A DNA stretch of 64,000 nucleotides from Eledone cirrhosa (lineage: Eukaryota), in contig OZ024741.1 of the NCBI GenBank assembly GCA_964016885.1, forward strand, positions 23,498,001-23,562,000, read 5' to 3'. Numbering within the stretch: position 1 is the first letter of the stretch; each line of letters begins with the position of its first letter. The position numbers and the translations under genes were made by a program. This document shows, piece by piece, positions 1 through 63,489 of the stretch. The notes under the pieces were generated by a model that saw nothing but the letters and a program-made list of their open reading frames with translations, did not search any database and was not told the origin of the DNA.

Positions 1-3000
1 CAGCATCAACAGTACCCCTTTACACTGTACTGGGTACATTATATCACAGCACCAACACTACCACTTTACACTGTACTGGGTACATTATATCACAGCACCA
101 ACACTACCACTTTATACTGTACTGGGTATATTATATCACAGCACCAGCACTACCACTTTACACTGTACTGGGTATATTATATCACCGCACCAACACTACC
201 ACTTTACACTGTACAGGGTACATTATATCACAGCACCAGCACTACCACTTTACACTGTACTGGGTATATTATATCACAGCACCAACACTACCACTTTACA
301 CTGTACTGGGTACATTATATCACAGCACCAGCACTACCACTTTACACTGTACTGGGTATATTATATCACGGCACCAACACTATCACTTTACACTGTACTG
401 GGTACATTATATCACAGCACCAACACTACCACTTTACACTGTACTGGGTATATTATATCATACCACCAGCACTACCACTTTACACTGTACTGGGTACATT
501 ATATCACAGCACCAGTACTACCACTTTACACTGTACTGGGTATATTATATCACAGCACCAACACTACCACTTTACACTGTACTGGGTATATTATATCACA
601 GAACCAACACCACCACTTTACACTGTACTGGGTACATTATATCACAGCACCAACATTACCACTTTACACTGTACTGGGTATATTATATCACAGCACCAGC
701 ACTACCACTTTACACTGTACTGGGTATATTATATCACAGCACCAACACTACCACTTTACACTGTACTGGGTATATTATATCACAGCACCAACACCCCCAC
801 TTTACACTGTACTGGGTATATTATATCACAGCATCAAAACTACCCCTTTACACTGTACTGGGTACATTATATCACAGCACCAACACTACCACTTTACACT
901 GTACTGGGTACATTATATCACAGCACCAACACTACCACTTTACACTGTACTGGGTATATTATAATCACAGCACCAGCACTACCACTTTACACTGTACTGG
1001 GTATATTATATCACGGCACCAACACTACCACTTTACACTGTACTGGGTATATTATATCACAGCACCAACACCCCCACTTTACACTGTACTGGGTACATTA
1101 TATCACAGCACCAACATTACCATTTTACACTGTACTGGGTATATTATATCACAGCACCAACACTACCACTTTACACTGTACTGGGTACATTATATCACAG
1201 CACCACCACTACCACTTTACACTGTACTGGGTATATTATATCACAGCACCAACACTACCATTTTACACTGTACTGGGTATATTATATCACAGCACCAACA
1301 CTACCACTTTACACTGTACTGGGTATATTATATCACAGCACCAGCACTACCACTTTACACTGTACTGGGTACATTATATCACAGCACCAGCACTACCACT
1401 TTACACTGTACTGGGTACATTATATCACAGCACCAACACTCCCCCTTTACACTGTACTGGGTATATTATATCACAGCATCAACACAACCCCTTTACACTG
1501 TACTGGGTACATTATATCACAGCACCAACACTACCACTTTACACTGTACTGGGTATATTATAATCACAGCACCAATACTACCACTTTACACTGTACTGGG
1601 TATATTATATCACAGCATCAACACTACCACTTTACACTGTACTGGGTATATTATATCACAGCACCAACACTACCACTTTACACTGTACTGGGTACATTAT
1701 ATCACAGCACCAGTACTACCACTTTACACTGTACTGGGAACATTATATCACAGCACCAACACCATCACCTTACACTGTACTGGGTACATTATATCACAGC
1801 ATCAACACTACCACTTTACACTGTACTGGGTATATTATATCACAGCACCAACACTACCCCTTTACACTGTACTGGGTATATTATATCACAGCATCAACAG
1901 TACCCCTTTACGCTGTACTGGGTACATTATATCACAGCACCAACACCACCACTTTACACTGTACTGGGTATATTATATCACAGCATCAACACTACCACTT
2001 TACACTGTACTGGGTATATTATATCACAGCATCAACAGTACCCCTTTACGCTGTACTGGGTACATTATATCACAGCACCAACACTCCCCCTTTACACTGT
2101 ACTGGGTATATTATATCACAGCATCAACACAACCCCTTTACACTGTACTGGGTATATTATAATCACAGCACCAATACTACCACTTTACACTGTACTGGGT
2201 ATATTATATCACAGCATCAACACTACCACTTTACACTGTACTGGGAATATTATATCACAGCACCAACACTACCACTTTACACTGTACTGGGTATATTATA
2301 ATCACAGCACCAGTACTACCACTTTACACTGTACCGGGAACATTATATCACAGCACCAACACCATCACTTTACACTGTACTGGGTACATTATATCACAGC
2401 ACCAACACTACCACTTTACACTGTACTGGGTATATTATATCACACCACTAGCACTACCACTTTACACTGTACTGGGTACATTATATAACAGCACCAACAC
2501 TACCACTTTACACTGTACTGGGTACATTACATCACAGCACTAGCACTACCACTTTACACTGTACTGGGTACATTATATCACAGCACCAACACTACCCCTT
2601 TACACTGTACTGGGTATATTATATCACAGCATCAACAGTACCCCTTTACGCTGTACTGGGTACATTATATCACAGCACCAACACCACCACTTTACACTCT
2701 ACTGGGTACATTATATCACAGCACCAACACTACCACTTTACACTGTACTGGGTATATTATATCACAGCACCAACATTACTACTTTACACTGCACTGGGTA
2801 CATTATATCACAGCACCAACACTACCACTTTACACTGTACTGGGTACATTATATCACAGCACCAACACTACCACTTTACACTGTACTGGGTACATTATAT
2901 CACAGCACCAACACCACCACTTTACACTCTACTGGGTACATTATATCACAGCACCAACACTACCACTTTACACTGTACTGGGTATATTATATCACAGCAC

Positions 3001-6000
3001 CAACATTACTACTTTACACTGCACTGGGTACATTATATCACAGCACCAACACCACAACTTTACACTGTACTGGGTACATTATATCACAGCACCAACACTA
3101 CCACTTTACACTGTACTGGGTACATTATATCACAGCACCAACACTACCACTTTACACTGCACTGGGTACATTATATCACAGCATCAACACTACCACTTTA
3201 CACTGTACTGGGTACATTATATCACAGCACCAACACTACCACTTTACACTGTACTGGGTATATTATAATCACAGCACCAGCACTACCACTTTACACTGTA
3301 CTGGGTACATTATATCACAGCATCAACACGACCACTTTACACTGTACTGGGTATATTATATCACAGCATCAACAGTACCCCTTTACACTGTACTGGGTAC
3401 ATTATATCACAGCACCAACACCACCACTTTACACTCTACTGGGTACATTATATCACAGCACCAACACTACCACTTTACACTGTACTGTGTATATTATATC
3501 ACAGCACCAACATTACTACTTTACACTGCACTGGGTACATTATATCACAGCACCAACACTACCACTTTACACAGTACTGGGTACATTATATCACAGCACC
3601 AACATTACCACTTTACACTGTACTGGGTACATTATATCACAGCACCAACACTACCACTTTACACTGCACTGGGTACATTATATCACAGTACTACCACTTT
3701 ACACTGTACTGGGTATATTATATCACAGCACCAGCACTACCACTTTACACTGTACTGGTTACATTATATCACAGCATCAACACTACCACTTTACACTGTA
3801 CTGGGTATATTATAATCACAGCACCAGCACTAACACTTTACACTGTACTGGGTACATTATATCACAGCATCAACACGACCACTTTACACTGTACTGGGTA
3901 TATTATATCACAGCACCAGCACTACCACTTTACACTGTACTGGGTATATTATAATCACAAAACCAACACTACCACTTTACACTATACTGGGTACATTATA
4001 TCACAGCATCAACACTACCACTTTACACTGTACTGGGTACATTATATCACAGCACCAACACTACCACTTTACACTGCACTGGGTACATTATATCACAGCA
4101 CCAACACTACCACTTTACACTGCACTGGGTACATTATATCACAGCACCAACACTACCACTTTACACTGTACTGGGTATATTATAATCACAGCACCAACAC
4201 TACTACTTTACACTGTACTGGGTATATTATAATCACAGCACCAACACTACCACTTTTCACTGTACTGGGTATATTATATCACAGCATCAACAGTACCCCT
4301 TTACACTGTACTGGGTACATTATATCACAGCACCAACACCACCACTTTACACTGTACTGGGTACATTATATCACAACACCAGCACTACCACTTTACACTG
4401 TACTGGGTATATTATATCACCGCACCAACACTACCACTTTACACTGTACAGGGTACATTATATCACAGCACCAACACTACCACTTTACACTGTACTGGGT
4501 ACATTATATCACAGCACCAACACTACCACTTTACACTGTACTGGGTATATTATATCACAGCACCAACATTACTACTTTACACTGCACTGGGTACATTATA
4601 TCACAGCACCAACACTACCACTTTACACTGTACTGGGTACATTATATCACAGCACCAACACTACCACTTTACACTGCACTGGGTACATTATATCACAACA
4701 CCAACACTACCACTTTACACTGCACTGGGTACATTATATCACAGCACCAACACTACCACTTTACACTGTACTGGGTACATTATATCACAGCACTACCACT
4801 TTACACTGTACTGGGTATATTATATCACAGCACCAGCACTACCACTTTACACTGTACTGGTTACATTATATCACAGCATCAACACTACCACTTTACACTG
4901 TACTGGGTACATTATATCACAGCACCAACACTACCACTTTACACTGTACTGGGTATATTATAATCACAGCACCAGCACTACCACTTTACACTGTACTGGG
5001 TATATTATATCACAGCACCAACACTACCACTTTACACTGTACTGGGTATATTATATCACAGCACCAACACCCCCACTTTACACTGTACTGGGTATATTAT
5101 ATCACAGCATCAACACTACCCCTTTACACTGTACTGGGTACATTATATCACAGCACCAACACTACCACTTTACACTGTACTGGGTACATTATATCACAGC
5201 ACCAACACTACCACTTTACACTGTACTGGGTATATTATAATCACAGCACCAGCACTACCACTTTACACTGTACTGGGTATATTATATCACGGCACCAACA
5301 CTACCACTTTACACTGTACTGGGTATATTATATCACAGCACCAACACCCCCACTTTACACTGTACTGGGTACATTATATCACAGCACCAACATTACCATT
5401 TTACACTGTACTGGGTATATTATATCACAGCACCAACAGTACCACTTTACACTGTACTGGGTACATTATAACACAGCATCAACACTACCACTTTACACTG
5501 TACTGGGTACATTATATCACAGCACCACCACTACCACTTTACACTGTACTGGGTATATTATATCACAGCACCAACACTACCATTTTACACTGTACTGGGT
5601 ATATTATATCACAGCACCAACACTACCACTTTACACTGTACTGGGTATATTATATCACAGCACCAGCACTACCACTTTACACTGTACTGGGTACATTATA
5701 TCACAGCACCAGCACTACCACTTTACACTGTACTGGGTACATTATATCACAGCACCAACACTCCCCCTTTACACTGTACTGGGTATATTATATCACAGCA
5801 TCAACACTACCCCTTTACACTGTACTGGGTACATTATATCACAGCACCAACACTACCACTTTACACTGTACTGGGTACATTATATCACAGCACCAACACT
5901 ACCACTTTACACTGTACTGCGTATATTATAATCACAGCACCAATACTACCACTTTACACTGTACTGGGTATAATATATCACAGCATCAACACTACCACTT

Positions 6001-9000
6001 TACACTGTACTGGGTATATTATATCACAGCACCAACACTACCACTTTACACTGTACTGGGTACATTATATCACAGCACCAGTACTACCACTTTACACTGT
6101 ACTGGGAACATTATATCACAGCACCAACACTACCACTTTACACTGTACTGGGTATATTATATCACACCACCAGCACTTCCACTTTACACTGTACTGGGTA
6201 TATTATATCACAGAACCAACACCACCACTTTACACTGTACTGGGTACATTATATCACAGCACCAACATTACCACTTTACACTGTACTGGGTATATTATAT
6301 CACAGCACCAACACCCCCACTTTACACTGTACTGGGTATATTATATCACAGCATCAACACTACCCCTTTACACTGTACTGGGTACATTATATCACAGCAC
6401 CAACACTACCACTTTACACTGTACTGGGTACATTATATCACAGCACCAACACTACCACTTTACACTGTACTGGGTATATTATATCACAGCACCAACATTA
6501 CCATTTTACACTGTACTGGGTACATTATAACACAGCATCAACACTACCACTTTACACTGTACTGGGTACATTATATCACAGCACCACCACTACCACTTTA
6601 CACTGTACTGGGTATATTATATCACAGCACCAACACTACCATTTTACACTGTACTGGGTATATTATATCACAGCACCAACACTACCACTTTACACTGTAC
6701 TGGGTATATTATATCACAGCACCAGCACTACCACTTTACACTGTACTGGGTACATTATATCACAGCACCAGCACTACCACTTTACACTGTACTGGGTACA
6801 TTATATCACAGCACCAACACTCCCCCTTTACACTGTACTGGGTATATTATATCACAGCATCAACACAACCCCTTTACACTGTACTGGGTACATTATATCA
6901 CAGCACCAACACTACCACTTTACACTGTACTGGGTACATTATATCACAGCACGAACACTACCACTTTACACTGTACTGGGTATATTATAATCACAGCACC
7001 AATACTACCACTTTACACTGTACTGGGTATATTATATCACAGCATCAACACTACCACTTTACACTGTACTGGGTATATTATATCACAGCACCAACACTAC
7101 CACTTTACACTGTACTGGGTACATTATATGACAGCACCAGTACTACCACTTTACACTGTACTGGGAACATTATATCACAGCACCAACACCATCACCTTAC
7201 ACTGTACTGGGTACATCATATCACAGCACGAAGACTACCACTTTACACTGTACTGGGTATATTATATCACAGCATCAACACTACCACTTTACACTGTACT
7301 TGGTACATTATATCACGGCACCAACACTACCACTTTACACTGTACTGGGTATATTATAATCACAGCACCAACACTACCACTTTACACTGTACTGGGTATA
7401 TTATATCACAGCATCAACACTACCACTTTACACTGTACTGGGTATATTATATCACAGCACCAACACTACCACTTTACACTGTACTGGGTATATTATAATC
7501 ACAGCACCAACACTACCACTTTACACTATACTGGGTATATTATATCACAGCATCAACACTACCACTTTACACTGTACTGGGTATATTATATCACAGCACC
7601 AACACTACCACTTTACACTGTACTGGGTACATTATATCACAGCACCAGTACTACCACTTTACACTGTACCGGGAACATTATATCACAGCACCAACACCAT
7701 CACTTTACACTGTACTGGGTACATTATATCACAGCACCAACACTACCACTTTACACTGTACTGGGTATATTATATCACACCACCAGCACCACCACTTTAC
7801 ACTGTACTGGGTACATTATATAACAGCACCAACACTACCACTTTACACTGTACTGGGTACATTATATCACAGCACCAACACTACCCCTTTACATTGTACT
7901 GGGTATATTATATCACAGCATCAACAGTACCCCTTTACACTGTACTGGGTACATTATATCACAGCACCAACACCACCACTTTACACTCTACTGGGTACAT
8001 TATATCACAGCACCAACACTACCACTTTACACTGTACTGGGTATATTATATCACAGCACCAACATTACTACTTTACACTGCACTGGGTACATTATATCAC
8101 AGCACCAACACTACCACTTTACACTGTACTGGGTACATTATATCACAGCACCAACACCACCACTTTACACTCTACTGGGTACATTATATCACAGCACCAA
8201 CACTACCACTTTACACTGTACTGGGTATATTATATCACAGCACCAACATTACTACTTTACACTGCACTGGGTACATTATATCACAGCACCAACACTACCA
8301 CTTTACACTGTACTGGGTACATTATATCACAGCACCAACACTACCACTTTACACTGTACTGGGTACATTATATCACAGCACCAACACTACCACTTTACAC
8401 TGCACTGGGTACATTATATCACAGCATCAACACCACCACTTTACACTGTACTGGGTACATTATATCACAGCACCAACACTACCACTTTACACTGTACTGG
8501 GTACATTATATCACAGCACCAACACTACCACTTTACACTGTACTGGGTACATTATATCACAGCACCAACACTACCACTTTACACTGCACTGGGTACATTA
8601 TATCACAGCATCAACACTACCACTTTACACTGTACTGGGTACATTATATCACAGCACCAACACTACCACTTTACACTGCACTGGGTACATTATATCACAG
8701 CATCAACACTACCACTTTACACTGTACTGGGTACATTATATCACAGCACCAACACTACCACTTTACACTGTACTGGGTATATTATATCACAGCACCAACA
8801 TTACTACTTTACACTGCACTGGGTACATTATATCACAGCACCAACACTACCACTTTACACTGTACTGGGTATATTATAATCACAGCACCAGCACCCCCAC
8901 TTTACACTGTACTGGGTATATTATATCACAGCACCAACACTACCACTTTACACTGTACTGGGTATATTATAATCACAGCACCAGCACTACCACTTTACAC

Positions 9001-12000
9001 TGTACTGGGTACATTATATCACAGCATCAACACGACCACTTTACACTGTACTGGGTATATTATATCACAGCATCAACAGTACCCCCTTTACACTGTACTG
9101 GGTACATTATATCACAGCACCAACACCACCACTTTACACTCTACTGGGTACATTATATCACAGCACCAACACTACCACTTTACACTGTACTGGGTATATT
9201 ATATCACAGCACCAACATTACTACTTTACACTGCACTGGGTACATTATATCACAGCACCAACACTACCACTTTACACTGTACTGGGTACATTATATCACA
9301 GCACCAACACTACCACTTTACACTGTACTGGGTATATTATATCACAGCACCAACATTACTACTTTACACTGCACTGGGTACATTATATCACAGCACCAAC
9401 ACTACCACTTTACACTGTACTGGGTACATTATATCACAGCACCAACACTACCACTTTACACTGCACTGGGTACATTATATCACAACACCAACACTACCAC
9501 TTTACACTGCACTGGGTACATTATATCACAGCACCAACACTACCACTTTACACTGTACTGGGTACATTATATCACAGCACTACCACTTTACACTGTACTG
9601 GGTATATTATATCACAGCACCAGCACTACCACTTTACACTGTACTGGTTACATTATATCACAGCATCAACACTACCACTTTACACTGTACTGGGTACATT
9701 ATATCACAGCACCAACACTACCACTTTACACTGTACTGGGTATATTATAATCACAGCACCAGCACTACCACTTTACACTGTACTGGGTATATTATATCAC
9801 AGCACCAACACTACCACTTTACACTGTACTGGGTATATTATATCACAGCACCAACACCCCCACTTTACACTGTACTGGGTATATTATATCACAGCATCAA
9901 CACTACCCCTTTACACTGTACTGGGTACATTATATCACAGCACCAACACTACCACTTTACACTGTACTGGGTACATTATATCACAGCACCAACACTACCA
10001 CTTTACACTGTACTGGGTATATTATAATCACAGCACCAGCACTACCACTTTACACTGTACTGGGTATATTATATCACGGCACCAACACTACCACTTTACA
10101 CTGTACTGGGTATATTATATCACAGCACCAACACCCCCACTTTACACTGTACTGGGTACATTATATCACAGCACCAACATTACCATTTTACACTGTACTG
10201 GGTATATTATATCACAGCACCAACAGTACCACTTTACACTGTACTGGGTACATTATAACACAGCATCAACACTACCACTTTACACTGTACTGGGTACATT
10301 ATATCACAGCACCACCACTACCACTTTACACTGTACTGGGTATATTATATCACAGCACCAACACTACCATTTTACACTGTACTGGGTATATTATATCACA
10401 GCACCAACACTACCACTTTACACTGTACTGGGTATATTATATCACAGCACCAGCACTACCACTTTACACTGTACTGGGTACATTATATCACAGCACCAGC
10501 ACTACCACTTTACACTGTACTGGGTACATTATATCACAGCACCAACACTCCCCCTTTACACTGTACTGGGTATATTATATCACAGCATCAACACTACCCC
10601 TTTACACTGTACTGGGTACATTATATCACAGCACCAACACTACCACTTTACACTGTACTGGGTACATTATATCACAGCACCAACACTACCACTTTACACT
10701 GTACTGCGTATATTATAATCACAGCACCAATACTACCACTTTACACTGTACTGGGTATAATATATCACAGCATCAACACTACCACTTTACACTGTACTGG
10801 GTATATTATATCACAGCACCAACACTACCACTTTACACTGTACTGGGTACATTATATCACAGCACCAGTACTACCACTTTACACTGTACTGGGAACATTA
10901 TATCACAGCACCAACACTACCACTTTACACTGTACTGGGTATATTATATCACACCACCAGCACTTCCACTTTACACTGTACTGGGTATATTATATCACAG
11001 AACCAACACCACCACTTTACACTGTACTGGGTACATTATATCACAGCACCAACATTACCACTTTACACTGTACTGGGTATATTATATCACAGCACCAACA
11101 CCCCCACTTTACACTGTACTGGGTATATTATATCACAGCATCAACACTACCCCTTTACACTGTACTGGGTACATTATATCACAGCACCAACACTACCACT
11201 TTACACTGTACTGGGTACATTATATCACAGCACCAACACTACCACTTTACACTGTACTGGGTATATTATATCACAGCACCAACATTACCATTTTACACTG
11301 TACTGGGTACATTATAACACAGCATCAACACTACCACTTTACACTGTACTGGGTACATTATATCACAGCACCACCACTACCACTTTACACTGTACTGGGT
11401 ATATTATATCACAGCACCAACACTACCATTTTACACTGTACTGGGTATATTATATCACAGCACCAACACTACCACTTTACACTGTACTGGGTATATTATA
11501 TCACAGCACCAGCACTACCACTTTACACTGTACTGGGTACATTATATCACAGCACCAGCACTACCACTTTACACTGTACTGGGTACATTATATCACAGCA
11601 CCAACACTCCCCCTTTACACTGTACTGGGTATATTATATCACAGCATCAACACAACCCCTTTACACTGTACTGGGTACATTATATCACAGCACCAACACT
11701 ACCACTTTACACTGTACTGGGTACATTATATCACAGCACGAACACTACCACTTTACACTGTACTGGGTATATTATAATCACAGCACCAATACTACCACTT
11801 TACACTGTACTGGGTATATTATATCACAGCATCAACACTACCACTTTACACTGTACTGGGTATATTATATCACAGCACCAACACTACCACTTTACACTGT
11901 ACTGGGTACATTATATCACAGCACCAGTACTACCACTTTACACTGTACTGGGAACATTATATCACAGCACCAACACCATCACCTTACACTGTACTGGGTA

Positions 12001-15000
12001 CATTATATCACAGCACGAAGACTACCACTTTACACTGTACTGGGTATATTATATCACAGCATCAACACTACCACTTTACACTGTACTTGGTACATTATAT
12101 CACGGCACCAACACTACCACTTTACACTGTACTGGGTATATTATAATCACAGCACCAACACTACCACTTTACACTGTACTGGGTATATTATATCACAGCA
12201 TCAACACTACCACTTTACACTGTACTGGGTATATTATATCACAGCACCAACACTACCACTTTACACTGTACTGGGTATATTATAATCACAGCACCAACAC
12301 TACCACTTTACACTGTACTGGGTATATTATATCACAGCATCAACACTACCACTTTACACTGTACTGGGTATATTATATCACAGCACCAACACTACCACTT
12401 TACACTGTACTGGGTACATTATATCACAGCACCAGTACTACCACTTTACACTGTACCGGGAACATTATATCACAGCACCAACACCATCACTTTACACTGT
12501 ACTGGGTACATTATATCACAGCACCAACACTACCACTTTACACTGTACTGGGTATATTATATCACACCACCAGCACTACCACTTTACACTGTACTGGGTA
12601 CATTATATAACAGCACCAACACTACCACTTTACACTGTACTGGGTACATTATATCACAGCACCAACACTACCCCTTTACATTGTACTGGGTATATTATAT
12701 CACAGCATCAACAGTACCCCTTTACACTGTACTGGGTACATTATATCACAGCACCAACACCACCACTTTACACTCTACTGGGTACATTATATCACAGCAC
12801 CAACACTACCACTTTACACTGTACTGGGTATATTATATCACAGCACCAACATTACTACTTTACACTGCACTGGGTACATTATATCACAGCACCAACACTA
12901 CCACTTTACACTGTACTGGGTACATTATATCACAGCACCAACACCACCACTTTACACTCTACTGGGTACATTATATCACAGCACCAACACTACCACTTTA
13001 CACTGTACTGGGTATATTATATCACAGCACCAACATTACTACTTTACACTGCACTGGGTACATTATATCACAGCACCAACACTACCACTTTACACTGTAC
13101 TGGGTACATTATATCACAGCAGCAACACTACCACTTTACACTGTACTGGGTACATTATATCACAGCACCAACACTACCACTTTACACTGCACTGGGTACA
13201 TTATATCACAGCATCAACACTACCACTTTACACTGTACTGGGTACATTATATCACAGCACCAACACTACCACTTTACACTGTACTGGGTACATTATATCA
13301 CAGCACCAACACTACCACTTTACACTGTACTGGGTACATTATATCACAGCACCAACACTACCACTTTACACTGCACTGGGTACATTATATCACAGCATCA
13401 ACACTACCACTTTACACTGTACTGGGTACATTATATCACAGCACCAACACTACCACTTTACACTGCACTGGGTACATTATATCACAGCATCAACACTACC
13501 ACTTTACACTGTACTGGGTACATTATATCACAGCACCAACACTACCACTTTACACTGTACTGGGTATATTATATCACAGCACCAACATTACTACTTTACA
13601 CTGCACTGGGTACATTATATCACAGCACCAACACTACCACTTTACACTGTACTGGGTATATTATAATCACAGCACCAGCACCCCCACTTTACACTGTACT
13701 GGGTATATTATATCACAGCACCAACACTACCACTTTACACTGTACTGGGTATATTATAATCACAGCACCAGCACTACCACTTTACACTGTACTGGGTACA
13801 TTATATCACAGCATCAACACGACCACTTTACACTGTACTGGGTATATTATATCACAGCATCAACAGTACCCCTTTACACTGTACTGGGTACATTATATCA
13901 CAGCACCAACACCACCACTTTACACTCTACTGGGTACATTATATCACAGCACCAACACTACCACTTTACACTGTACTGGGTATATTATATCACAGCACCA
14001 ACATTACTACTTTACACTGCACTGGGTACATTATATCACAGCACCAACACTACCACTTTACACTGTACTGGGTACATTATATCACAGCACCAACACTACC
14101 ACTTTACACTGTACTGGGTACATTATATCACAGCACCAACACTACCACTTTACACTGCACTGGGTACATTATATCACAGTACTACCACTTTTCACTGTAC
14201 TGGGTATATTATATCACAGCACCAGCACTACCACTTTACACTGTACTGGGTACATTATATCACAGCACCAACACTACCACTTTACACTGTACTGGGTATA
14301 TTATAATCACAGCACCAGCACTAACACTTTACACTGTACTGGGTACATTATATCACAGCATCAACACGACCACTTTACACTGTACTGGGTATATTATATC
14401 ACAGCACCAGCACTACCACTTTACACTGTACTGGGTATATTATAATCACAGAACCAACACTACCACTTTACACTATACTGGGTACATTATATCACAGCAT
14501 CAACACTACCACTTTACACTGTACTGGGTACATTATATCACAGCACCAACACTACCACTTTACACTGTACTGGGTACATTATATCACAGCACCAACACTA
14601 CCACTTTACACTGTACTGGGTATATTATAATCACAGCACCAACACTACCACTTTACACTGTACTGGGTATATTATAATCACAGCACCAACACTACCACTT
14701 TACACTGTACTGGGTATATTATATCACAGCATCAACAGTACCCCTTTACACTGTACTGGGTACATTATATCACAGCACCAACACTACCACTTTACACTGT
14801 ACTGGGTACATTATATCACAGCACCAACACTACCACTTTATACTGTACTGGGTATATTATATCACAGCACCAGCACTACCACTTTACACTGTACTGGGTA
14901 TATTATATCACCGCACCAACACTACCACTTTACACTGTACAGGGTACATTATATCACAGCACCAGCACTACCACTTTACACTGTACTGGGTACATTATAT

Positions 15001-18000: not shown

Positions 18001-18053
18001 TACACTGTACAGGGTATATTATATCACAGCACCAACACTACCACTTTACACTG
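1..18053. repeat. 46-bp tandem satellite (consensus CAGCACCAACACTACCACTTTACACTGTACTGGGTAYATTATATCA), roughly 390 units, continuing off the left edge
   Basis: Uninterrupted 46-bp periodicity with point variants, a +1 variant (TATAATCA) and occasional 40-bp deleted units; it ends at ...CCACTTTACACTG|AACCAGG. Confidence 0.98.
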
Positions 18054-18255: not shown

Positions 18256-18297
18256 GTAAGTTTTGAGTTTTCTATCACTGTATCATATCTTTATTAC

Positions 18298-18962: not shown

Positions 18963-18983
18963 TGAATAAAATACACACACACT

Positions 18984-46261: not shown

Positions 46262-47195
46262 AGCATCATCATCACTGTTTAACATTCTAGCATGGGTTAG
46301 ATGGGTTACTCTTTTACCTGTTCCAGCCATCCGGCTGAGGCCATGCTGGGGCACCACCCCTGCGATGTCACATGAGACAAGTCAGGTCTGGAGACCATGT
46401 CTTCTTCATAAGGATCTGTATTTAGGCTTGGTTTCTACAACTTGATGCTATTAACCACATTACAGTGTAGACTGGGTGTTTTTTATTGTGGCACCAAAAC
46501 AACCATCTAACAGGGTGGACTGAGTGCTTTTTCAACATGTCACCAGCACAACCACCTTTTGACATAAATTGGGTGCTTTTTTGTTGTATCACCAGTACAA
46601 CCCCCTTATAGTGACACAACTGTGGGAGAGCAGGTATGGAGTGTGTATACCTTTCCATGTTTGTATGCATAGGTTGGATAGGAGGGGGTGAAACATGTAT
46701 GCAGGCTGAGGATAGGTGAGTATTAAGGTGTATGAGCAGAGGAGGGGAAGATTGGTGCAGACAAGTGTCCTTTAGAAGTGTACATGGGAAGGTGGGTCTT
46801 CTGCAGTACAGTTTGTCACCAGAGGTTTCAATTCTATGTCATCACCTTTGAAAGGTTTTATCACTTCCTCCTAAATTTTCCTGGGTCTTTCGCTTCCATA
46901 GTTTCCTTCAACACCAGACACCCTGCATCTTTTTATACAGCTGTCATCCTCCATACACATCACATCTGTATTACTGCCATCCCCTCTCCAGTACACTGCA
47001 TCTGACGTCTCTTATACCCAGTTTTTCTCTATCATTTATGCTTTGCTGCTCATGCACACTACTATTACACATCTATCCAAGCATGTAAGCTTCATTTCTT
47101 TCCAATCTTCATAGGTCCTCTGCACATATTGCCCAGGTTTCACTTAAATACAACATTACTGTTCGTACCCAAGCTTCATATAGTTTGCTTTCATC
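46262..47195 (-). mobile_element. Old degenerate RTE LINE 3' fragment (another tail remnant at about 45990-46180)
   Basis: (CAT)n..CTAGCATGGGTTAGA tail, decayed 48-bp units at 46455-46610, and a decayed match to the RTE C-terminal coding region at 46840-47190. Confidence 0.75.
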
Positions 47196-47566
47196 ACATA
47201 CTCAGAGAATTGCAGTAGTGGTTGAAGTGGCGGCATTATCAGTAGGGGTATTGGTTCCTGGAGGTGGCAGTAAGGAGGGCAAAGACTACTTTTGTTTTTA
47301 TTGAACTAAAATATACGTTTCTTCTAGCCATAGAAGATAGCAAATCTCACACACTCATCTACACTTGTCATTACAAAGGATGTCCGCACTCAATGCTGCC
47401 TATGTACCAAGAGGAAGAGAGACAGCCCAAACTTCTGGTGTGATGTCACTGGCCCCTCACTTCCAGCAAGACCTCCCTTGCACCTCCAGTACTCTAGCCC
47501 TACATAAATCCTCAATTACTGAACACACTCTTTGGTATAAAACTTAACTGGTGCTTTTGTTAGGGT

Positions 47567-50099
47567 AGTTAAAGATATTTTACTCAACGCCTACGACAGT
47601 AAAGAAGAACAGATAGAGACATTTAACGTAGAAGAGAACTGGGAGTTCCTAAAAAATAACTTACTAGAGGCGACGGATGAGGTTTGTGGCTGGAGTAAGA
47701 CCTCAAGCAGGAGGAGAGTGACTTGGTGGTGGAACAATAAGGTAGATGAAGCAGTCAAGGCCAAGAGACAGGCATGGAAAGAATGGAAGAACGGGGGGAG
47801 CAGGGTACATTACATAGAGACCAAGAGGGAAGCTAGGCGACAAGTATACTTAGCTAGGAGGGAAGCAGAGGATAGAAAATTCAAGCATGTTTTACAACGT
47901 GAGGACCAGAAACAGGAGGTATTCAAGATTGCGAGGCAGTGTGTCAGAGATAGTTGTGATGTCATTGGAGAGAAGTGTATCCGGAATGATAAAGGTGAGC
48001 TTGCCCTCACAAGTGCTGAGAAGAAAGATGCATGGAAGAGTCATTATGATAGATTACTAAATGAGGAGAATGCATGGGAAGAAGAGACCCTACCCCACGT
48101 AGACCCTATAGAGGGACCAGCAGTACAAGTCAGCGGCAGCGTAGTAAGTAAGGCAATCAGAGATATGAAGATAGGGAAGGCAACCGGTCCATCGGGTATA
48201 GCTGCCGAGATGCTGAAGGCATCTGGGTCTGTAGGTCACACTATAACCACACGTATCGTTAACCAGGTAATACTAGAGGGGGCCATACCAAAAGATTGGT
48301 GCAGTAGCATCATTGTCAACTGCTACAAAGGTAAAGGCGATGCACTAGATAGAGGAAACTATAGAGGTATAAAGTTGATGGACCAGGTCATGAAAGTAAC
48401 AGAAAGAGTTATAGCACAGCTGATTAGGGACCGGGTGAATATAGACGAGATGCAATTTGGGTTTGTTCCAGGGAAAGGCACCACTGATGCGCTCTTCCTT
48501 GTGAGGCAATTACAGGAAAAGTACCTAGCTAAAAGTAAGCCACTCTACTTGGCATTTGTCGACCTTGAGAAAGCCTTTGACAGAGTTCCACGTGCAGTAA
48601 TCTGGTGGGCTCTTAGAAAACTAGGAGTAGATGAATGGCTTGTGAAAGCGGTACAAGCCATGTATAGGGGAGCAGTCAGCAAAGTTAGGATTGGCAATGA
48701 GTATAGCGAGGAATTTAGCGTACAGGTTGGGGTCCACCAGGGCTCTGTTCTTAGCCCTCTCCTGTTCATCATAGTCCTGCAGGCAATAACGGAGGAGTTT
48801 AAGACCGGATGCCCATGGGAACTCCTGTATGCTGATGACCTCGCACTCATAGCTGAATCTATGGTAGAACTAGAGAATAAATTCCAAACCTGGAAGCAGG
48901 GACTAGAGAGAAAGGGCCTCAAAGTCAACATGACAAAGACTAAGGTCCTTATAAGTAGACGAGAAAACAGAACCCAGATCCCCTCAGGGAAATGGCCTTG
49001 CTCAGTATGTAGGAAAGGTGTAGGTAGGAACTCCATTCTTTGCCCCAAATGCAAACAATGGGTACACAAGAGATGTAGCGGGATCTCAGGAAGCTTAATT
49101 AAGAATGTAGGATTCACATGCAGCAGCTGTGCTGAAACAGCAAGCAAACAGCCACAGGAAACAAGTACCACCAATCTCTGGGAGGGCCCTGTAGAAACAG
49201 TAGACAGCTTCTGCTACCTAGGTGACCGAATTAGCAACGGAGGTGGGTGCTCAGAAAGTACAATAACTAGGGTAAGAACGGGATGGAAGAAGTTTAGGGA
49301 ACTACTACCACTGCTAGCTGCAAAAGGCTTCTCCCTCAGAATGAAAGGCAGACTGTATGATGCGTGTATCCGAACAGCGATGTTGCATGGTAGTGAGACC
49401 TGGGCGCTGAAGGTGGAAGACTTACGTAGATTAGAGAGAAACGAAGCCTGCATGCTCCGATGGATGTGTAACAGTAATATACGTGAACGACAAAGCATAA
49501 ATGAATTGAGAGAGAGACTGAGCATAAGAGGAATCAAATGCTGCGTGCAGGAGAGGCGGTTACGCTGGTATGGACATGTGATGCGTATGAAGGATGACAG
49601 CTGCATAAAAAGGTGCAGAGCACTAGAAGTTGATGGAAACCGCGGAGTGGGGAGACCCAAGATGACTTGGGATGAGGTGATAAAAGCCGACCTTACCCAA
49701 CTACACCTCTCAAAGTCAATGACACACGACCGTGACTTCTGGCGTCACGCAGTAATACAGTGTACCCGACCTCCCATGGGTACATGCTGAAGCATATAAA
49801 CAATATGCCCCCCCCCCCCCCACCGCAAGGTGGTCGTGGAGGTGCCACGGCAAAAAAGCACCCAGCCCACACTGTAAAGTGGACGTGTAGGCGCCACGAA
49901 AAAGCACCCAGCACTCACTGTAAATGAGGTTGGTGTTAGGAAGGGCATCCAGCTGTAGAAATCAAGCCAGATCAGTTCCTGTATGAGCAAGGCATGGTCA
50001 GCCGACCAGACACTGCCCACAACAGGACAACCCGTCTAACCCATGCTAGCGTGGAAGAACGGACGTAAAACGGTGATGATGATGATGATGATGAGTTAA
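47567..50099 (+). mobile_element. RTE-clade LINE, 5'-truncated (lacks the APE endonuclease)
   Basis: Open RT frame, a 3'UTR with about 2.5 internal 48-bp units and a (GAT)n tail ending at about 50093. AGTTAA at 47567 and 50094 is a candidate short TSD. Confidence 0.95.
47570..49790 (+). CDS. RTE reverse transcriptase ORF remnant (uninterrupted; no native start)
   Basis: NYRGIKL, QFGF, FVDLEKAFDRV, GVHQGSVLSPLLF, LLYADD, YLG, RLRWYGHV; the frame continues upstream of the ORF-track start (KDILLNAYDSKEE...). Confidence 0.93.
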
Positions 50100-52297: not shown

Positions 52298-55200
52298 ATC
52301 ATCATCATCATCATCATCACCGTTTAACGTCCGTGTTCCACGCTTGCATGGGTTTGGACGGGGGTAGTCCCACTTGAGGCAAGAGTGATTGTCTTGCTCG
52401 CATAGGACTGTCTGTCAGGTTTTCTACAGTTGGATGCCCTTCCTAACACCAACCACATTTACAGTGTGGGGCTGGGAGGTTTTTACCGTGTTGCCTACAC
52501 GGCCACATTACAGCGTGGACTGTGTGTTTTTTTTTGTCGTGACACCTACACGATCTCATTTGTTTCGGCCTGGATGGTGTGGCACCAACACAACTTTACA
52601 TAGAACGGGGTGGCGTGGTGGGACGGGGGGGGGGGGGTATTTTGTTAGATGCCTACTGGCTGTAGTAGGTTTTACTTTGTATTTAGGTAAGGCGGGTCTT
52701 CTCTGTTACTGAGTACCGTCAAAGGTCTCGGTCCAGTGACATTGTCTTGGAGAGGTGTAAGTGTGTGAGGTCGGAGTTTATCAGCTCGTCCCAGGTTTTT
52801 CTAGGTCTGCCTATTCCGTGGCTACCGTCTATCTTTATTGCCCTGCACTTTGTTATACAGCTATCGACTTTCATGCGCATCACGTGTCCATACCAACGTA
52901 GCCTTCTCTCGAGTAAACAACATCTGATCCCTCTTATTTCTAACTTTTTCCTTAGTTCGTTTATGCTTTGCCGTTCACGTATATTACTGTTACACATCCA
53001 GCGGAGCATGCAAGCTTCGTTCCTCTCTAGTCTGCGTATATCCTCTGCACACAATGCCCAGGTCTCACTGCCATGCAACATTGCTGTTCGTATGCAGGCA
53101 TCGTACAACCTGCCTTTCATTTTTAGGGAGAACCCTTTAGCAGCTAATAGTGGTATAAGCTCTCTGAACTTTTTCCAACCAGTTCTGACTCTAGCTACTG
53201 TACTTTCAGAGCACCCTCCCCCACTGCTGATTTTATCACCCAGGTAACGGAAACTGTCCACTATTTCTATAGAACCCTCTGCGCAATTGAAAGAGCTAGT
53301 ATTTAGTGGGCACTTGCTGCTACTTATTGCACCAGAGCACCGGCCACATGTAAAATCTATGTTCTTAGTTAGCTTACCTGTGATCCCACTACATCTTTTA
53401 TGCACCCATACTTTGCATTTAGGACATAAAATGGAGTTTCTACCTACGCCTTTCCTACACACCAAGCACGACCATTTCCCAGAAGGGACCGCCGCCTTAT
53501 TTTCTTTCCTACAAACTAGAACTTTAGTCTTAGCCAGGTTAATTTTAAGGCCTTTTGATTCTAGGCCGTGCTTCCATGTTTGGAATTTCTTCTCTAGCTC
53601 GGCCATTGATTCCGCTATGAGTGTCAGGTCGTCTGCGTATAGGAGTTCCCATGGGCAGCCGGTCTTGAACTCCTCTGTTATAGCCTGAAGGGCAATAATA
53701 AATAGTAGGGGGCTGAGAACAGAGCCCTGATGGACGCCAACTTTTACGCTAAACTCTTCACTATATTCGTTGTTAATTCTAACCTTGCTGACTGTTTCTT
53801 TATACATGGCTTGTATAGCTCTCACAAGCCATTCGTCAACGCCTAGTTTTCTAAGAGCCCACCAGATAATGGAGCGGGGGACTCTGTCGAAGGCTTTCTC
53901 CAAGTCGACAAAAGCTAAGTAGAGGGGTTTACCTTTAGTTAGGTACTTCTCCTGTAGTTGTCGTACAATGAAAAGAGCGTCTGTGGTACTTTTGCCTGAC
54001 ACAAACCCGAACTGCATTTCATCTAGGTCAATTCTCTCTCTGATTAGTTGTGCTATTACTTTTTCCGTGACCTTCATGACCTGGTCGATTAATTTAATGC
54101 CTCTATAGTTACTCCTATCTAGGGCGTCTCCTTTACCCTTATAACAGTTAACGATGATGCTGCTATGCCAGTCCTTCGGAACAACCCCATTCTGTACGAC
54201 TTGGTTAACTATGCGGGTGACCATGGTGTGTCCCACCGTGCCAGATGCCTTCAGCATCTCAGCAACTATTTCCGAAGGCCCAGCCACCTTACCCATCTTC
54301 ATATCCTTGATTACCTTACTTATTATACTCCCCTCGACTAACACTGCTGGTCCCTCTATTGGGTCGATATGGGGGAGACTGTCTTTCTCCCATTTATTCT
54401 CCTCATTTAGTAGCCTTTCATAGTGACACTTCCAAGCTACCTTCTTATCAGCGTCGGTGATGGCAAGTGTGCCATCGTCGTTTAGTACACACTTCTCCTC
54501 GACAATATCACGGTTTTCCTCGACGCATTGCCTAGCAATCCTGAACACCTCACGTTTTTGGTCATCGCGTTGTAGAACATGCTTGAACTTTCTTTCCTCA
54601 GCTTCCCTTCTTGCTAAGTACACTTGTCTCCTAGCTTCCCTCCTGGCCACTTGATAGTCTTCTCTACTTCCCCCATCCCGCCATACTTTCCAAGCCTGCT
54701 TTTTGGCCTTAATTGACCCCTCCACCTTACTGTTCCACCACCATGTTACTCTCCTCCTGCCTACAGGCCTGCTCCAGCCACAGACTTTGTCTGTCGCCAA
54801 CAGCAGGTTTGCTTTCAGAAATTCCCACTCTCCCTCTATATTGTCCGACTCTAAATGTTCTTCCTTACTGTCGAAAGCATCAAGTAATATGCTTTGAAAT
54901 TTATTCCTGGCTGTGGGGTCCTTTAGCTTCCATATTTTTCTCCTGAGGATAGTCCTCTTCTGCTGTCGAGTACGTCTCGTCCTGACTATGAGGTCGCTAA
55001 TTATGAGTCTATGTTGGGAGGTGCATTCTTCATGGGGGAGGGATTTAGTGTTTACAACAGACACTCTGTCACGTCTTCTGGTAAGGATATAATCTACCTG
55101 GCTTGTGTGTTCCCCGGATCTATAGGTGATCAGGTGATTGTCACGTTTTTTGAAGTTAGTGTTACAGATAGTTAGGTTATTTGCATCACAGAATTCCAGG

Positions 55201-56224
55201 ATTCTGGAGCCTTCCTCATTTCTAGTACCAAACCCATAGCCTCCATGGATTTCGTCGTAGCCGTCACAATGTTGTCCAACGTGACCATTTAGGTCGCCTG
55301 CAATAATTATATAGTCACTGTCAGATATTTGGGAGGTAGTTAGCATCAGTGTCTCATAGAATCTGTCTTTTATAGTGCCGGGCAGTCCGGATTGGGGTGC
55401 GTACGCAGATATTACTTTCACCGTAGTTCTATTGAGGACAAGTCGTATTTTAATTATTCTGTCGTTCACTCTATTTACGTCTATTATCTTATCTGCCCAC
55501 TTTTCTGCTACCATGATTCCTACTCCACCCAGCCCATCGTCGTTTCCCACCCAGAAAAGCTTATAACATCGTTTTTTACCCTCAATGAATCTAGCAGACC
55601 CACCCCTCCACCTGGTCTCTTGAATACAACAAACATCGACCTCCTTACGTTCAAGCATTTCTACAACCTCGTTAGCGCGACACTTTAGGGTGCCTACATT
55701 TATGGTACCAACTCTGAAGTTTTGGATTGCGTTTGGGGGTTGGGGGCGGTGGGGGGCGGTGGGGGGCGGGGGGCGATGGGGTTATGTTAGCCGCCCGCGG
55801 TCGAAACAATGAGGAGTGCTCGCATTCTCGTCCAAGAGGTGAATTTGTCTTTATCTTTGGCATTGTCGCTGAGCGTCCAGATTTTTCTCTCTCTCCTCCA
55901 CTCTCCAGGATTCCGCAGTCCATCTATCCATCATATATCGAAAGGCAACCAGGCAAGCGATAGTATAGGCCTCTGGCTTCTGATTGGTCCGCGTAATAAT
56001 AATACTGGTGATGCGTGGGGGCTCTGGCTTATGATTGGTCCACATAATAGCAATGGTGGTGCATGGGGGTGGGAGGGAGGGGTGTTGGGTAGCTAGATAG
56101 AAGGTAATGATTGAATGGGGGTCCTTGCATTTAACAAGCGATTAACAAAAATACAAAATTTGTTCTGTTCCAATACGACAAAAACTTTTGTATCTAACAA
56201 TTAATGAATACAAAAAATGTAGAT
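52298..56224 (-). mobile_element. Near full-length RTE-clade LINE (second subfamily); the 5' end may extend to about 56835
   Basis: (GAT)n tail at 52298-52320, 3'UTR with about 3 diverged 48-bp units, an APE+RT ORF and a long upstream region. No TSD identified. Confidence 0.93.
52719..55720 (-). CDS. RTE LINE APE endonuclease / reverse transcriptase polyprotein (about 1000 aa)
   Basis: VGTINVGTL, CIQETRW, SAYAPQ, AGDLNGHVG, QVDYIL, SQHRL (APE); QFGF, DLEKAFD, QGSVLSPLLF, YADD (RT). A premature TGA lies about 12 codons before the expected end. Confidence 0.95.
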
Positions 56225-56369
56225 TGTTTTAGCAATAGATTGGCTATTTGGACTTGATACGAAATATGGAGTGTGGAGGTAGAGATGAAGAAAAATATGT
56301 ACATTACGTTACATGAATATCGTGGGATAGACAGCAAAGCAATGAAATTTGGCGAAGTGAATTTTTATC

Positions 56370-56413
<44 letters not shown>

Positions 56414-56835: not shown

Positions 56836-56981
56836 CAAATATTAAAAACATTTGTTCTAATATTCTGTGAGCAGTTAGAACATATATGAATTTTCTATCA
56901 AAATTTCTTCTTATATATATATACTCTTTTACATATGCATGCTTACATATATATGTAAATATATGTGTGTGTACATATATA

Positions 56982-57160
56982 TCATCATCATCATCATTTC
57001 ATTTTATGTCCGCTTTTTCCTTGCTTGCAAGGGTGGGACGGGAACTGATTCTGGCTTGATTTCTACAGCTGGATGCCCTTCCTAACACCAACCTTATTTA
57101 CAGTGAGTGCTGGGTGCTTTTTTTTTTTGCCGTGGCACCTCCATGACCACTTTGCAGTGG
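56982..57160 (-). mobile_element. RTE 3'UTR remnant
   Basis: (CAT)n tail and CTACAGCTGGATGCCCTTCCTAACACCAACC..TTTACAGTGAGTGCTGGGTGC match the reverse complement of the RTE tail. Confidence 0.8.
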
Positions 57161-62742: not shown

Positions 62743-63124
62743 CTGGAGAAGAAAGACATTTTAAACAATGGAATATAGGGGTACAGACATAGCTGTAAAA
62801 ATAATGAGTCACCAGATATGTCAACTGGAGAAGAAAAACATTATAACAATATAGGGGTACAGATATGGCTGTATATATAAGGAGTTTGCTTCACAATCGC
62901 ATGGTTTTCAGTTCAGTCTCATTGCAGAGCTTTTGGGCGCAAATGTCTTCTATTACTGTCTAAGGTTGATCAATGCTTTGTAAGTGAAGTTTGGTAGATG
63001 GAAACTACAGAAGCCTATTTCATGTGTCTGATGACTCTGTTATAAACAGGCAAAACTCCAGTGTAATATGACTCACTATTTAACCTTAATAAAATGAATA
63101 TATATATGTGTGTGTATATATGTA

Positions 63125-63489
63125 TGTAAAGTGGTCATGTAGGTGTCATGATAAAAATCACCCAGATCACACTGTAAAGTGGTCATGTAGGAGTCACAAC
63201 AAAAAGCCCCCAGTACACACTGTAAAGTGGTCATGTAGGAGTCACAACAAAAAGCCCCCAGTACACACTGTAAAGTGGTCATGTAGGAGTCACAACAAAA
63301 AGCCCCCAGTACACACTGTAAATGTGATTAGTGTTAGGAAAGACATCCAGCTGTAGAAACCAAGCCAAAATCAATTCTGCATAAGCAAGACATGGTTACC
63401 TGACCTGGCTTTTTTGACAATGGGACAACTCGTTTAACCCATGCTAGCATGGAAAAAATGGATATTAAACAGTAATGACAATGATGATG
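63125..63489 (+). mobile_element. RTE 3'UTR remnant with the 48-bp unit in about 4 tandem copies (63125-63322)
   Basis: TGTTAGGAAAGACATCCAGCTGTAGAAACCAAGCC...AACCCATGCTAGCATGG...GATGATGA matches 49930-50093. Confidence 0.88.

Follow-up and report, generated by a model that had tools for sequence, protein, structure and literature searches.

A short tandem repeat in the 3'UTR of an RTE-like LINE as a probable seed of minisatellites and satellites in Eledone cirrhosa

Analysis of a 64,000-nucleotide stretch of the Eledone cirrhosa genome (contig OZ024741.1; hereafter the window), together with genome-wide searches, indicates that a tandem dimer or trimer of a ~48-bp unit, carried in the 3'UTR of an RTE-like LINE, very probably seeds arrays of 10 to ~500 copies at a minority of its insertion sites, and that the two giant satellites of the window likely derive from it as well. 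The beginnings of satellites are hard to study because their first stages are seldom observed. In this genome one seed occurs at very many sites in dated subfamilies. Insertion can be dated from the tail and expansion from the array, which makes it possible to ask in what chromosomal settings a dimer expands, at what rate, and when exchange between loci begins.

The carrier LINE and its copies in the window

The type-B copy of the LINE contains a single frame of 1,020 aa (52719-55781, minus strand) encoding an AP-type endonuclease (PF03372/PF14529), followed by a reverse transcriptase (RT, PF00078) and a PHD finger, while the young type-A copy retains a 749-aa RT+PHD frame (47541-49790, plus strand); the two are 75% identical at the nucleotide level over a span of 2.2 kb. 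The element terminates in a (GAT)n simple repeat, and 5'-truncated copies are frequent. Two to three ~48-bp units lie in tandem inside the 3'UTR, followed by ~160 bp of downstream flank and then (GAT)n. This dimer or trimer is present in ORF-bearing copies of two subfamilies, which constitutes the first step of the proposed mechanism. The single endonuclease-RT ORF, the simple-repeat end, the frequent 5' truncation and the RT motifs, which we take to be RTE-like and on which the clade name rests, led us to call the carrier RTE-like. Elements of the RTE clade usually lack a cysteine finger at the C terminus, and their 3'UTR tends to be very short; the present LINE departs from this in its PHD finger C-terminal to the RT, found also in many homologues, and in its longer 3'UTR of ~300-400 bp. 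Four unit and tail types (A, B, C and D) were distinguished, and the window contains the following copies and arrays.

1..18053, minus strand: right-hand portion of a 46-bp satellite of 60 kb; unit of old type C, shortened by a 2-bp deletion; LINE flank not recognised
18983..19478, minus strand: 5'-truncated LINE 3' end with 6-7 type-D units, ~160-bp downstream flank and (GAT)n
26881..27630, plus strand: 5'-truncated young LINE, type A; two full units and a partial one at 27346-27470; tail ends at 27630
28011..28069, minus strand: weak, possibly chance remnant of the LINE terminal segment, oriented as predicted and ~230 bp away from the 48-bp satellite
28301..37069, minus strand: 48/47-bp satellite of 184 copies; type-C unit; no clear LINE flank
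46381..47194, minus strand: old decayed LINE 3' end with an ORF2 remnant at 46856-47194 (72% to type A), ~3 diverged units and a partial tail
47541..50094, plus strand: young LINE, type A; frame 47541-49790, units 49808-49930, downstream flank and (GAT)n
52299..55781, minus strand: LINE, type B; frame 52719-55781, three unlike units at 52452-52605, tail 52299-52451
56981..57159, minus strand: short LINE 3' fragment with one to two units
63125..63490, plus strand: 5'-truncated LINE 3' end with four type-D units and tail

TRF delimited five of these repeats (46 bp x392.6 at 1-18053, 48 bp x183.9 at 28301-37069, 48 bp x6.3 at 19152-19454, 49 bp x2.2 at 27359-27464 and 48 bp x4.1 at 63125-63322), and the units at 49808-49930 and 52452-52605 were read directly from the sequence. 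The results agree with an earlier note on this DNA as to the ~48-bp unit in the LINE 3'UTR (the antisense 46-mer quoted there is the reverse complement of 49852-49898), the ~185-fold 48-bp satellite and the ~4-fold repeat at 63125; the repeat at 19150-19478, given as ~7-fold, does lie in a LINE tail and comprises six to seven units. Other statements had to be amended. The ~390 copies of the 46-bp satellite are correct for the window, but the full array comprises 1,304 copies over 60 kb (G000:C2:23,456,092-23,516,053), 41.9 kb of it left of the window. Units are present at both sites described as ~2.5-fold repeats in intact LINE tails, but the copy at 27355 is a ~750-bp 5'-truncated LINE, and the ~3 units at 52455-52605 are unlike one another rather than a clean repeat.

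The possibility that the unit is a ribozyme or the basis of an RNA-structure-based satellite was rejected, since an Rfam scan of window positions 45000-58000 returned no RNA family, simple-repeat miRNA noise alone, and RNA fold stability was not unusual in five stretches (z of -1.4 to +0.6).

Dispersal of the unit and growth of arrays in place

A unit profile built from the short window copies alone was run against a census sample of 57 blocks (950 kb), the positions of which were picked without regard to sequence or repeats, and gave 274 matches versus none in reversed sequence. Of the 77 unit clusters in this sample, 65 are joined to the downstream flank of the LINE in the expected orientation, 11 lack such a junction and one lies at an edge; all four arrays of 10 or more units (12, 13, 18 and 90 units) are so joined, the chance adjacency of a cluster and a tail being ~0.75% per cluster. 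Exact patterns counted genome-wide yielded 113,051 matches to a tail 23-mer and 71,991 to a unit 23-mer, with 0 for the reversed controls; the genome contains more than 100,000 LINE 3' ends, mostly 5'-truncated. Extrapolation from the 49 tails and four arrays in 950 kb gives an estimated 115,000-205,000 seed insertion sites and an estimated 3,400-32,000 with 10 or more copies. LINE copies bearing two to three units are scattered genome-wide, which supports the proposal that retrotransposition disperses a pre-formed tandem, and this mass dispersal, mostly as 5'-truncated ends, is the second step.

The genome amplifies many other sequences into minisatellites, and the LINE unit accounts for ~10% of arrays by number (4 of 42). 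The other 38 sampled arrays are unrelated to the LINE, and unit arrays make up 6.4 of 146 kb of array DNA; the LINE unit is nevertheless the sole monomer that recurs among the 42 (4/42 versus 0.7% of bases, p ~2e-4). The notion of a LINE-generated satellite superfamily holds in that unit arrays occur at many sites, but is tempered by this small share and by the two giants, which have no clear LINE flank.

LINE sequence was found on both sides of an array of 97 copies (C25:3.298-3.303 Mb, with the ORF2 end upstream and the tail downstream), of another of 90 copies (C26:13.70 Mb) and of arrays of 25, 12 and 12 copies. A LINE tail directly borders an array of 36 copies located 74 kb to the left of the window, and type-C arrays of 117 and 499 copies (24 kb) adjoin old tails. 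Tail-bearing unit arrays span 2 to 499 units, with intermediate lengths present; a clear LINE flank is absent at type-C arrays of 229 and 49 copies. Unit variants are reshuffled within arrays, and the longest identical runs reach 80, 27, 18, 22 and 37 units versus at most 3-6 in shuffled order, the block structure of the 36-copy array being barely above shuffles (8 versus 6). Duplicated blocks measure 1.3-3.7 kb and comprise up to 80 units, and the long identical blocks could partly reflect assembly errors. Block duplications of several kilobases suggest growth after insertion. The third step is the occurrence of such arrays between LINE flanks, which most likely expanded in place, once the element had inserted, by misaligned recombination (unequal exchange) or slippage at the DNA level.

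Two further candidates were set aside. A 28-bp x57 array touching LINE tails in L070, considered as a second 3'UTR unit, is a pre-existing array into which LINEs inserted. To the right of the window lie 19-bp arrays that have a 9-mer in common with the unit; LINE sequence does not flank them, and they were left out of the counts.

The window giants and exchange among type-C arrays

Unit type and tail type are correlated (Mantel rho 0.58, 0/999, n=74), arrays have grown in all four types, and the oldest tails (~25% from the column majority) still adjoin units. Because the oldest tails adjoin units and unit type tracks tail type, the direction for present-day arrays is from LINE to array. A nearest-tail test gave a mixed picture: for 6 of 16 arrays the short copy with the nearest tail was among the four best of 51 in unit similarity, and for another 6 it placed 26th or lower.

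The left flank of the 46-bp array, where the earlier note had looked for a LINE tail beyond position 1, consists instead of a SINE-like stretch and a microsatellite, with the nearest LINE tail at least ~1.75 kb away. Directly at the LINE-sense 3' end no LINE tail was found for the 46-bp array, and for the 48-bp array just the weak 55-bp remnant 230 bp off (28011..28069; nhmmer E=0.047, or 0.0087 with a type-C profile), such short ends being common in the genome. As neither giant has a clear LINE flank, we infer their LINE origin from homology and from flanked relatives elsewhere. The unit of the 48-bp satellite matches the widespread C unit at 43-44 of 48 bases. Judged by their monomers, both giants are old subfamily C units and not derivatives of the young type-A LINE first quoted, so the window does not hold one copy-number series of one family; the flank-less 184- and 1,304-copy satellites are likely late products of that old subfamily.

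Tails are kept at 15 of 40 type-C 62-mer loci, at 12 of 41 arrays under a stricter rule, and at 12 of 23 arrays of five or more copies in the type-C set. Old non-expanded copies lose them as often (5 of 15 keep one), and decay or deletion of the flanks of old copies would be the fourth step. Type-C probes are depleted on C1 (61 of 3,986 matches versus 589 expected by length).

Identical C units occur behind tails 23-40% apart. Ten arrays with near-identical units stand on tails as old as any (mean 25% from the majority; smallest pairwise distance 0.23 in 325 pairs). At such a tail age the chance of a pristine 48-mer is 1e-5 to 1e-6, yet it occurs at no fewer than 47 loci among the first 100 of 323 matches; among the matches listed this variant is absent from C1, C3 and C4, although C1 has 21 loci with a 29-mer. 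Three loci are chimeric, and in one array, which has a younger tail, 13 type-C units abut 11 type-D units at a sharp boundary. These patterns suggest that amplification of type C was not purely independent and involved exchange between loci. The view of amplification as local and independent thus stands as regards repeated in-place growth in LINE 3'UTRs in all four types, but its independence is contradicted for part of type C. As a fifth and less certain step, it appears somewhat probable that, in a subset of the old type-C arrays, units have since passed from one unlinked locus to another, chiefly on small chromosomes and at chromosome ends.

A serious alternative, to which we give somewhat less than even weight, holds that local amplification was strictly independent, and that the identity of type-C units reflects an effect of picking loci with exact probes or selection on the unit (e.g. 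as a protein-binding site), with no exchange. At the 29-mer-picked loci the 19 unselected bases are indeed 21% off the column majority, close to the 25% of the tails; a second variant 48-mer recurs at 23 loci (three on C1), ~10 times the column-product expectation, so that this null for unit identity is too strict; and local deletion between adjacent copies could account for two of the three chimeras. Such independence is nonetheless hard to reconcile with near-identical units on the oldest tails, with the number and chromosomal distribution of pristine 48-mers and with the sharp junction of C and D units. It bears on the fifth step alone and is compatible with the first four. Returning to exchange, its fullest version, on which we are evenly divided, is that a single unit variant, from a subfamily long dead, has broken free of its carrier and is spreading among unlinked loci on small chromosomes and at chromosome ends, with fossil tails and the arrays of younger LINEs as landing sites, and that of over 100,000 seeds thousands became minisatellites or satellites. 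If true, one animal genome would display the whole life cycle, from a dimer in a LINE 3'UTR to a free satellite that homogenises itself.

That arrays are made mainly at the RNA or cDNA step, by RT slippage or jumping on the units or by retrotransposition of long-array donors as a whole, is improbable. An array of 12 units has a tail identical to the youngest type-A tails (dT 0.000), so its 12 units arose on insertion or shortly thereafter; in many copies the 5' truncation falls within the units; and slippage during retrotransposition has been proposed for RTE microsatellites (PMC2887409). Against this, arrays with 90-96% homogeneity on tails 19-36% diverged from the family are far younger than the insertion, arrays of 9-60 kb with duplicated blocks are larger than the element itself, and the 46-bp satellite is private to one locus (319 of 319 genome-wide exact matches of a 33-mer lie inside the array). 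Tail-less type-C arrays, moreover, have no flanks in common at corresponding offsets and gave no convincing sign of target-site duplication (7+ bases are shared at 2 of 29, in one case as unit sequence), which also led us to reject a separate carrier element for them.

Still less credible is that the satellite came first, the LINE ancestor having captured the dimer and type-C arrays being remnants or offshoots of an independent satellite. Type C is the oldest tail class, and more than half of its arrays have no recognisable LINE flank; but type-C arrays are short to medium and dispersed, and any flank that survives is LINE tail, in register and immediately adjacent to the final unit. The A, B and D arrays, moreover, lie within the flanks of their own subfamily, which capture cannot account for, and no large tail-less array of these types was met.

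Chance resemblance of unrelated short repeats, conceivable given short monomers and the very many minisatellites of this genome, is refuted by the shuffled-control comparison that the earlier note proposed (z=7.3 for the 46-bp and z=7.2 for the 48-bp monomer against two natural LINE units, with 0 of 300 dinucleotide shuffles each, versus z of at most 2.1 for 63 unrelated arrays scored alike) and by the continuous series of intermediates. Five other arrays (20509, 24115, 38502 and 41383 in the window, and a 21-bp array just outside at 64622) gave no match to the LINE units.

Relation to known systems

The closest precedents appear to be the Ogre 3'UTR satellites of legumes and the RTE-seeded microsatellites of moths. 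Tandem repeats in the 3'UTR of Ogre/Tat LTR-retrotransposons gave rise to satellites in Fabeae (PisTR-A; Lathyrus sativus; Vondrak et al., PMC7004042), and, as here, short arrays are described as dispersed with the element, with some expanding and intermediates keeping element flanks. The present carrier is instead an animal non-LTR endonuclease-RT LINE present mostly as short 5'-truncated ends, which works alike without being a family member and extends the plant model to an animal LINE. Ogre/Tat elements are reported with many unrelated monomers, whereas one 48-bp unit lineage runs across the present subfamilies; centromeric expansion is not established here, type C leaning to small chromosomes and chromosome ends.

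RTE-clade LINEs generate microsatellite families in Lepidoptera (Tay et al., PMC2887409) and resemble the present element in their single ORF, abundant 3' partial copies and 3' repeats that seed tandem families. Their described seed is a terminal simple repeat, whereas the present one is an internal complex 48-bp unit ~160 bp before (GAT)n, whose arrays reach tens of kilobases. A review (PMC9659126) presents LINE-derived satellites (cetacean common satellite from the L1 3' end, chicken HinfI from CR1, Drosophila 18HT from HeT-A/TART) and the central tandem repeats inside Helitron/Tetris elements, in which, as here, the monomer originates in 3' sequence of a non-LTR element or in tandem repeats internal to a mobile element. 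Its LINE cases are single satellites derived from a piece of the element, whereas the Eledone LINE carries a pre-formed dimer, which expands at separate sites estimated to number in the thousands. Spreading of Rsp-like into 1.688 clusters in Drosophila simulans (Sproul et al., PMC7403614) is described with young homogeneous blocks joined to older related arrays, small dispersed clusters and within-locus block duplication, as in Eledone; here, in contrast, the older landing sites would be LINE fossils, and the exchange is putative. A unit common to so many sites constitutes a genome-wide substrate for ectopic recombination; we claim no function for it.

No report of the present LINE-satellite family was found; Repbase/Dfam or the O. 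vulgaris repeat library (PMC13282606) may hold a consensus of the LINE. The comparable RTE-2_OV of Octopus vulgaris is a single-ORF endonuclease-RT-zinc-finger RTE with a repeat-rich 3'UTR (Petrosino et al., PMC9115989), where the finger is noted as rare in RTE yet present in an octopus RTE. The passages of that paper on the element make no link to satellites, and four of its eight supplement files gave no match to the unit motifs. Compared by description alone, RTE-2_OV has a C2H2 finger and a "microsatellite" 3'UTR, whereas the present LINE has a PHD-type finger and a 48-bp minisatellite; their sizes are similar (1,109 aa versus 1,020+ aa). Sequencing runs registered under other organisms contain the young type-A LINE at 99%+, and no RNA run was among those listed. 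A metagenome search recovered related ORF2 sequences at 13 distant loci, with 28-41% identity.

Carrier LINE and its tandem arrays

The carrier of the ~48-bp units is a LINE, which from its motifs we take to be probably an RTE element; its protein homologues carried no clade names. Two copies with open reading frames, sharing 75% identity across 2.2 kb, lie in the window:

47541-49790, + strand: LINE ORF, 749 aa, with RT and PHD
52719-55781, - strand: LINE ORF, 1,020 aa, with endonuclease, RT and PHD finger

In both, the 3'UTR leads from two to three units to a unique tail of ~160 bp and a (GAT)n end. The genome spans 3.0 Gb, with four chromosomes measuring 379-443 Mb and numerous others between 22 and 136 Mb; the LINE end and the SINE at 18783-18962 suggest an octopod source. 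For a blind test, 950 kb was drawn as 57 arbitrarily placed blocks from 26 contigs. Tails were detected with a profile built on 11 copies (window and targeted) and units with a matrix built on 15 units from short copies in the window; the matrix gave 274 matches versus 0 in reversed sequence. As the earlier note had predicted, the clusters adjoin the LINE 3'UTR in a set orientation: 65 of 77 were joined to a tail (11 were without one and one lay at an edge), as were all four arrays of 10 or more units, with a chance expectation of ~0.75%. A recognised unit stood upstream in 41 of 49 full tails, most of the remaining eight being truncated there. In exact counts across the genome, one tail 23-mer occurred 113,051 times and one unit 23-mer 71,991 times (0 for the controls); extrapolation gave ~155,000 tails and 12,600 arrays of 10 or more units (95% range 3,400-32,000).

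Arrays of intermediate size are still joined to LINE sequence. To the left of the window, at a distance of 74 kb, a 36x array begins directly at a full tail; another array, 38x, lies behind the ORF2 of a B-type element. Chromosome C25 bears 25x, 117x and 97x arrays within one 30-kb block, the last with the ORF2 end upstream and a tail downstream, while a 90x array on C26 has LINE flanks on both sides and amplifies the middle of the three units of subfamily B. On C1, a 499x array spanning 24 kb is joined to an old tail, which scores 27 bits against a profile built without it. Seeding of minisatellites and satellites by the LINE 3'UTR dimer at very many sites is well supported. Separately, four loci (L071, L133, L146 and window coordinate about -72000) share a young B-type variant in which 112 bp across unit and flank are duplicated; their tails are near-identical, indicating that retrotransposition also carries small tandem changes.

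The general route from retroelement 3' repeats to tandem repeats is already known. Ogre 3'UTR repeats are the seed of most Lathyrus sativus satellites (PMC7004042), microsatellites of moths arise from RTE ends (PMC2887409), Rsp-like repeats have inserted into 1.688 clusters (PMC7403614), and a cephalopod RTE has a 'microsatellite' 3'UTR (PMC9115989). A review of satellites treats L1-, CR1- and HeT-A-derived cases, with no RTE case in the passages covered and 0 matches for RTE (PMC9659126); the passages covered of three cephalopod papers make no LINE-satellite link (PMC13282606, PMC12988792, PMC9068888), and those of a further source were uninformative (PMC4758252). No published description of this family was found in a search with most subscription papers and repeat databases outside its coverage, and we regard the LINE-unit system as a new variant of the known seeding mechanism.

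The two large satellites of the window

All arrays listed in the earlier note were located in place. When scored against two natural LINE units taken from the window, the 46-bp (window 1-18053) and 48-bp (window 28301-37069) monomers gave z values of 7.3 and 7.2, respectively, a level that none of 300 dinucleotide shuffles reached; this bears out the claimed similarity, and 63 unrelated arrays scored in the same way reached z of at most 2.1. The 46-bp array, noted at about 390 copies, extends 41.9 kb beyond the left edge of the window and totals 1,304 copies in 60 kb. All 319 exact genome-wide matches of a 33-mer from this array fall inside it. The LINE tail expected left of position 1 was absent from the left flank of the array, and a few 48-bp units remaining at its left edge indicate that the 46-mer was derived by a 2-bp deletion. 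The sole LINE trace at the 48-bp array is a weak remnant of a terminal segment, 55 bp long and separated from it by 230 bp (E=0.047; 0.0087), which may be a chance match. Both satellites are of type C, the oldest of the four unit types, and from homology and their relatives at other loci we infer a probable LINE origin for both.

Age of the arrays and possible exchange between loci

Unit types A and B (young), D (middle) and C (old) were called from diagnostic bases. A full unit was present in 129 clusters, 74 of which also had a tail of at least 110 bp; in these 74, unit distance tracks tail distance (Mantel rho 0.58, 0/999), and unit types group on the tail tree (10 changes versus 39 shuffled, rough bootstrap). 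Arrays are present in all four types; a nearest-tail test of 16 arrays was mixed, with rank 1-4 of 51 in six and 26 or worse in six. For arrays with 90-96% homogeneity whose tails have diverged by 19-36%, expansion came long after insertion. Identical units recur in matching order over 80 units in the 46-bp array (lag 147), 27 in the 48-bp array (lag 28) and 18-37 in three others, versus at most 3-6 in shuffled order (8 versus 6 in the 36x array). Such ordered runs indicate block duplication at the DNA level, assembly error being a possible alternative source of the long runs. In one 12x array, whose tail matches the youngest copies exactly, the two parental units form a mosaic, so the first amplification steps were fast; slippage at insertion could contribute to them.

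The young LINE 3' end (window 49300-50090) was also observed at 99%+ identity in public runs coded as several other organisms. In 18 runs under 15 organism codes, 35-95% of its sampled words were present; three runs with other organism codes yielded contigs that span the end of ORF2, the units and the tail, with segments of ≥99% identity, and one contig has a joint going back 48 bases. On sequence identity, this suggests very recent shared activity or transfer.

A 62-mer of the common type-C variant has 323 matches, of which the 100 listed represent 47 loci; among the matches listed, none lies on C1, C3 or C4, six loci lie at the far end of C2, and small chromosomes hold most. In 40 of these at least 47 loci, the tail was kept at 15 (12 of 41 arrays under a stricter rule). 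The retained tails are old and related in a star-like manner: they differ by 25% from the column majority, and no pair among 26 tails is closer than 0.23. The units, by contrast, are identical or almost so. At such tail age the chance of a pristine 48-mer is 1e-5 to 1e-6, too small for at least 47 loci. Three chimeras were found: at L174, 13 C units abut 11 D units and the tail is a younger one; at L196, C units have a young tail; and at L056, a C block is preceded by the ORF2 and 3'UTR of a B-type element. A screen of 63 clusters of six or more units for internal mixing flagged only L174.

The 62-mer probe itself selects for unit identity, and loci chosen by a 29-mer (37 on C1 and proximal C2, 31 usable) therefore served as control. 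There, 19 unselected unit bases differ by 21%, matching the clock prediction, so most old loci drift alone. A control variant also recurs (23 loci, 56 matches), at 3 of 31 loci on C1/C2 versus 0.9% by column product; this ~10x excess means that the simple column-product null is too strict and that high identity is not limited to one variant. The 62-mer variant was expected to be three times rarer than the control variant, yet was found at no fewer than twice as many loci. Remaining ascertainment and selection on the unit are rival explanations of type-C identity; we lean slightly towards exchange between loci, which accounts for both the identity and the chimeras and is plausible as a second stage. 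It would proceed by ectopic conversion, deletion between copies or circle reinsertion, routes that the evidence here does not separate. Local amplification, described earlier as independent, is so for most old loci in the 29-mer test; the pristine C units and the three chimeras appear to depart from it.

Type-C 29-mer loci bunch mid-chromosome on the two largest chromosomes (G000:C1 about 209-224 Mb, C2 about 193-219 Mb), speculatively marking centromeres or old fused chromosome ends. At G000:C28:104.39-104.42 Mb, a type-C 48-mer repeats every 86 bp, the unit here being part of a new, longer monomer. At L055:210-2472, a long (CACCAC/CACTAC)-type simple repeat abuts a 49x type-C array at the unit's own CACTACCAC motif, from which it perhaps grew.

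Other tandem repeats

Among 42 TRF arrays in the blind sample (period 20-200, 10 or more copies), four consist of the LINE unit and 38 are unrelated, the unit accounting for 6.4 of 146 kb of array DNA. It is enriched among arrays (4/42 versus 0.7% of bases, p about 2e-4) and is the only monomer to recur. The genome amplifies many other sequences, SINE pieces included, and carries an unusual load of large locus-specific minisatellites; seven of the 57 blind blocks (L079, L087, L093, L095, L107, also L057 and L066) are almost entirely giant arrays of unrelated 21-72-bp monomers. Two further window elements are associated with tandem repeats:

18783-18962: SINE
42553-45070: gypsy-like pol remnant, with RT, RNase H and integrase in separate frames

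The head of this SINE gave rise to a 45-bp x66 array (L053, C25:3,294,503-3,297,467), its 3' part to an 80-bp x5 array (L056:3389-3793). A 51-bp x13 array (window 41383-42036), just upstream of the broken LTR-retrotransposon remnant, is possibly another element-borne tandem repeat. Right of the window, 19-bp arrays (389x and 297x; window coordinates 76392-95588, L010-L012) have a 9-mer in common with the LINE unit; no LINE flank was found at them, and the unique stretch beside them is duplicated. In the 72-bp x36 array (window 38502-41096), GC skew flips near 40,000, likely through an internal inversion, and its relatives at L017:6144-6506 and G000:C2 about 395.968 Mb identify a second dispersed minisatellite family.
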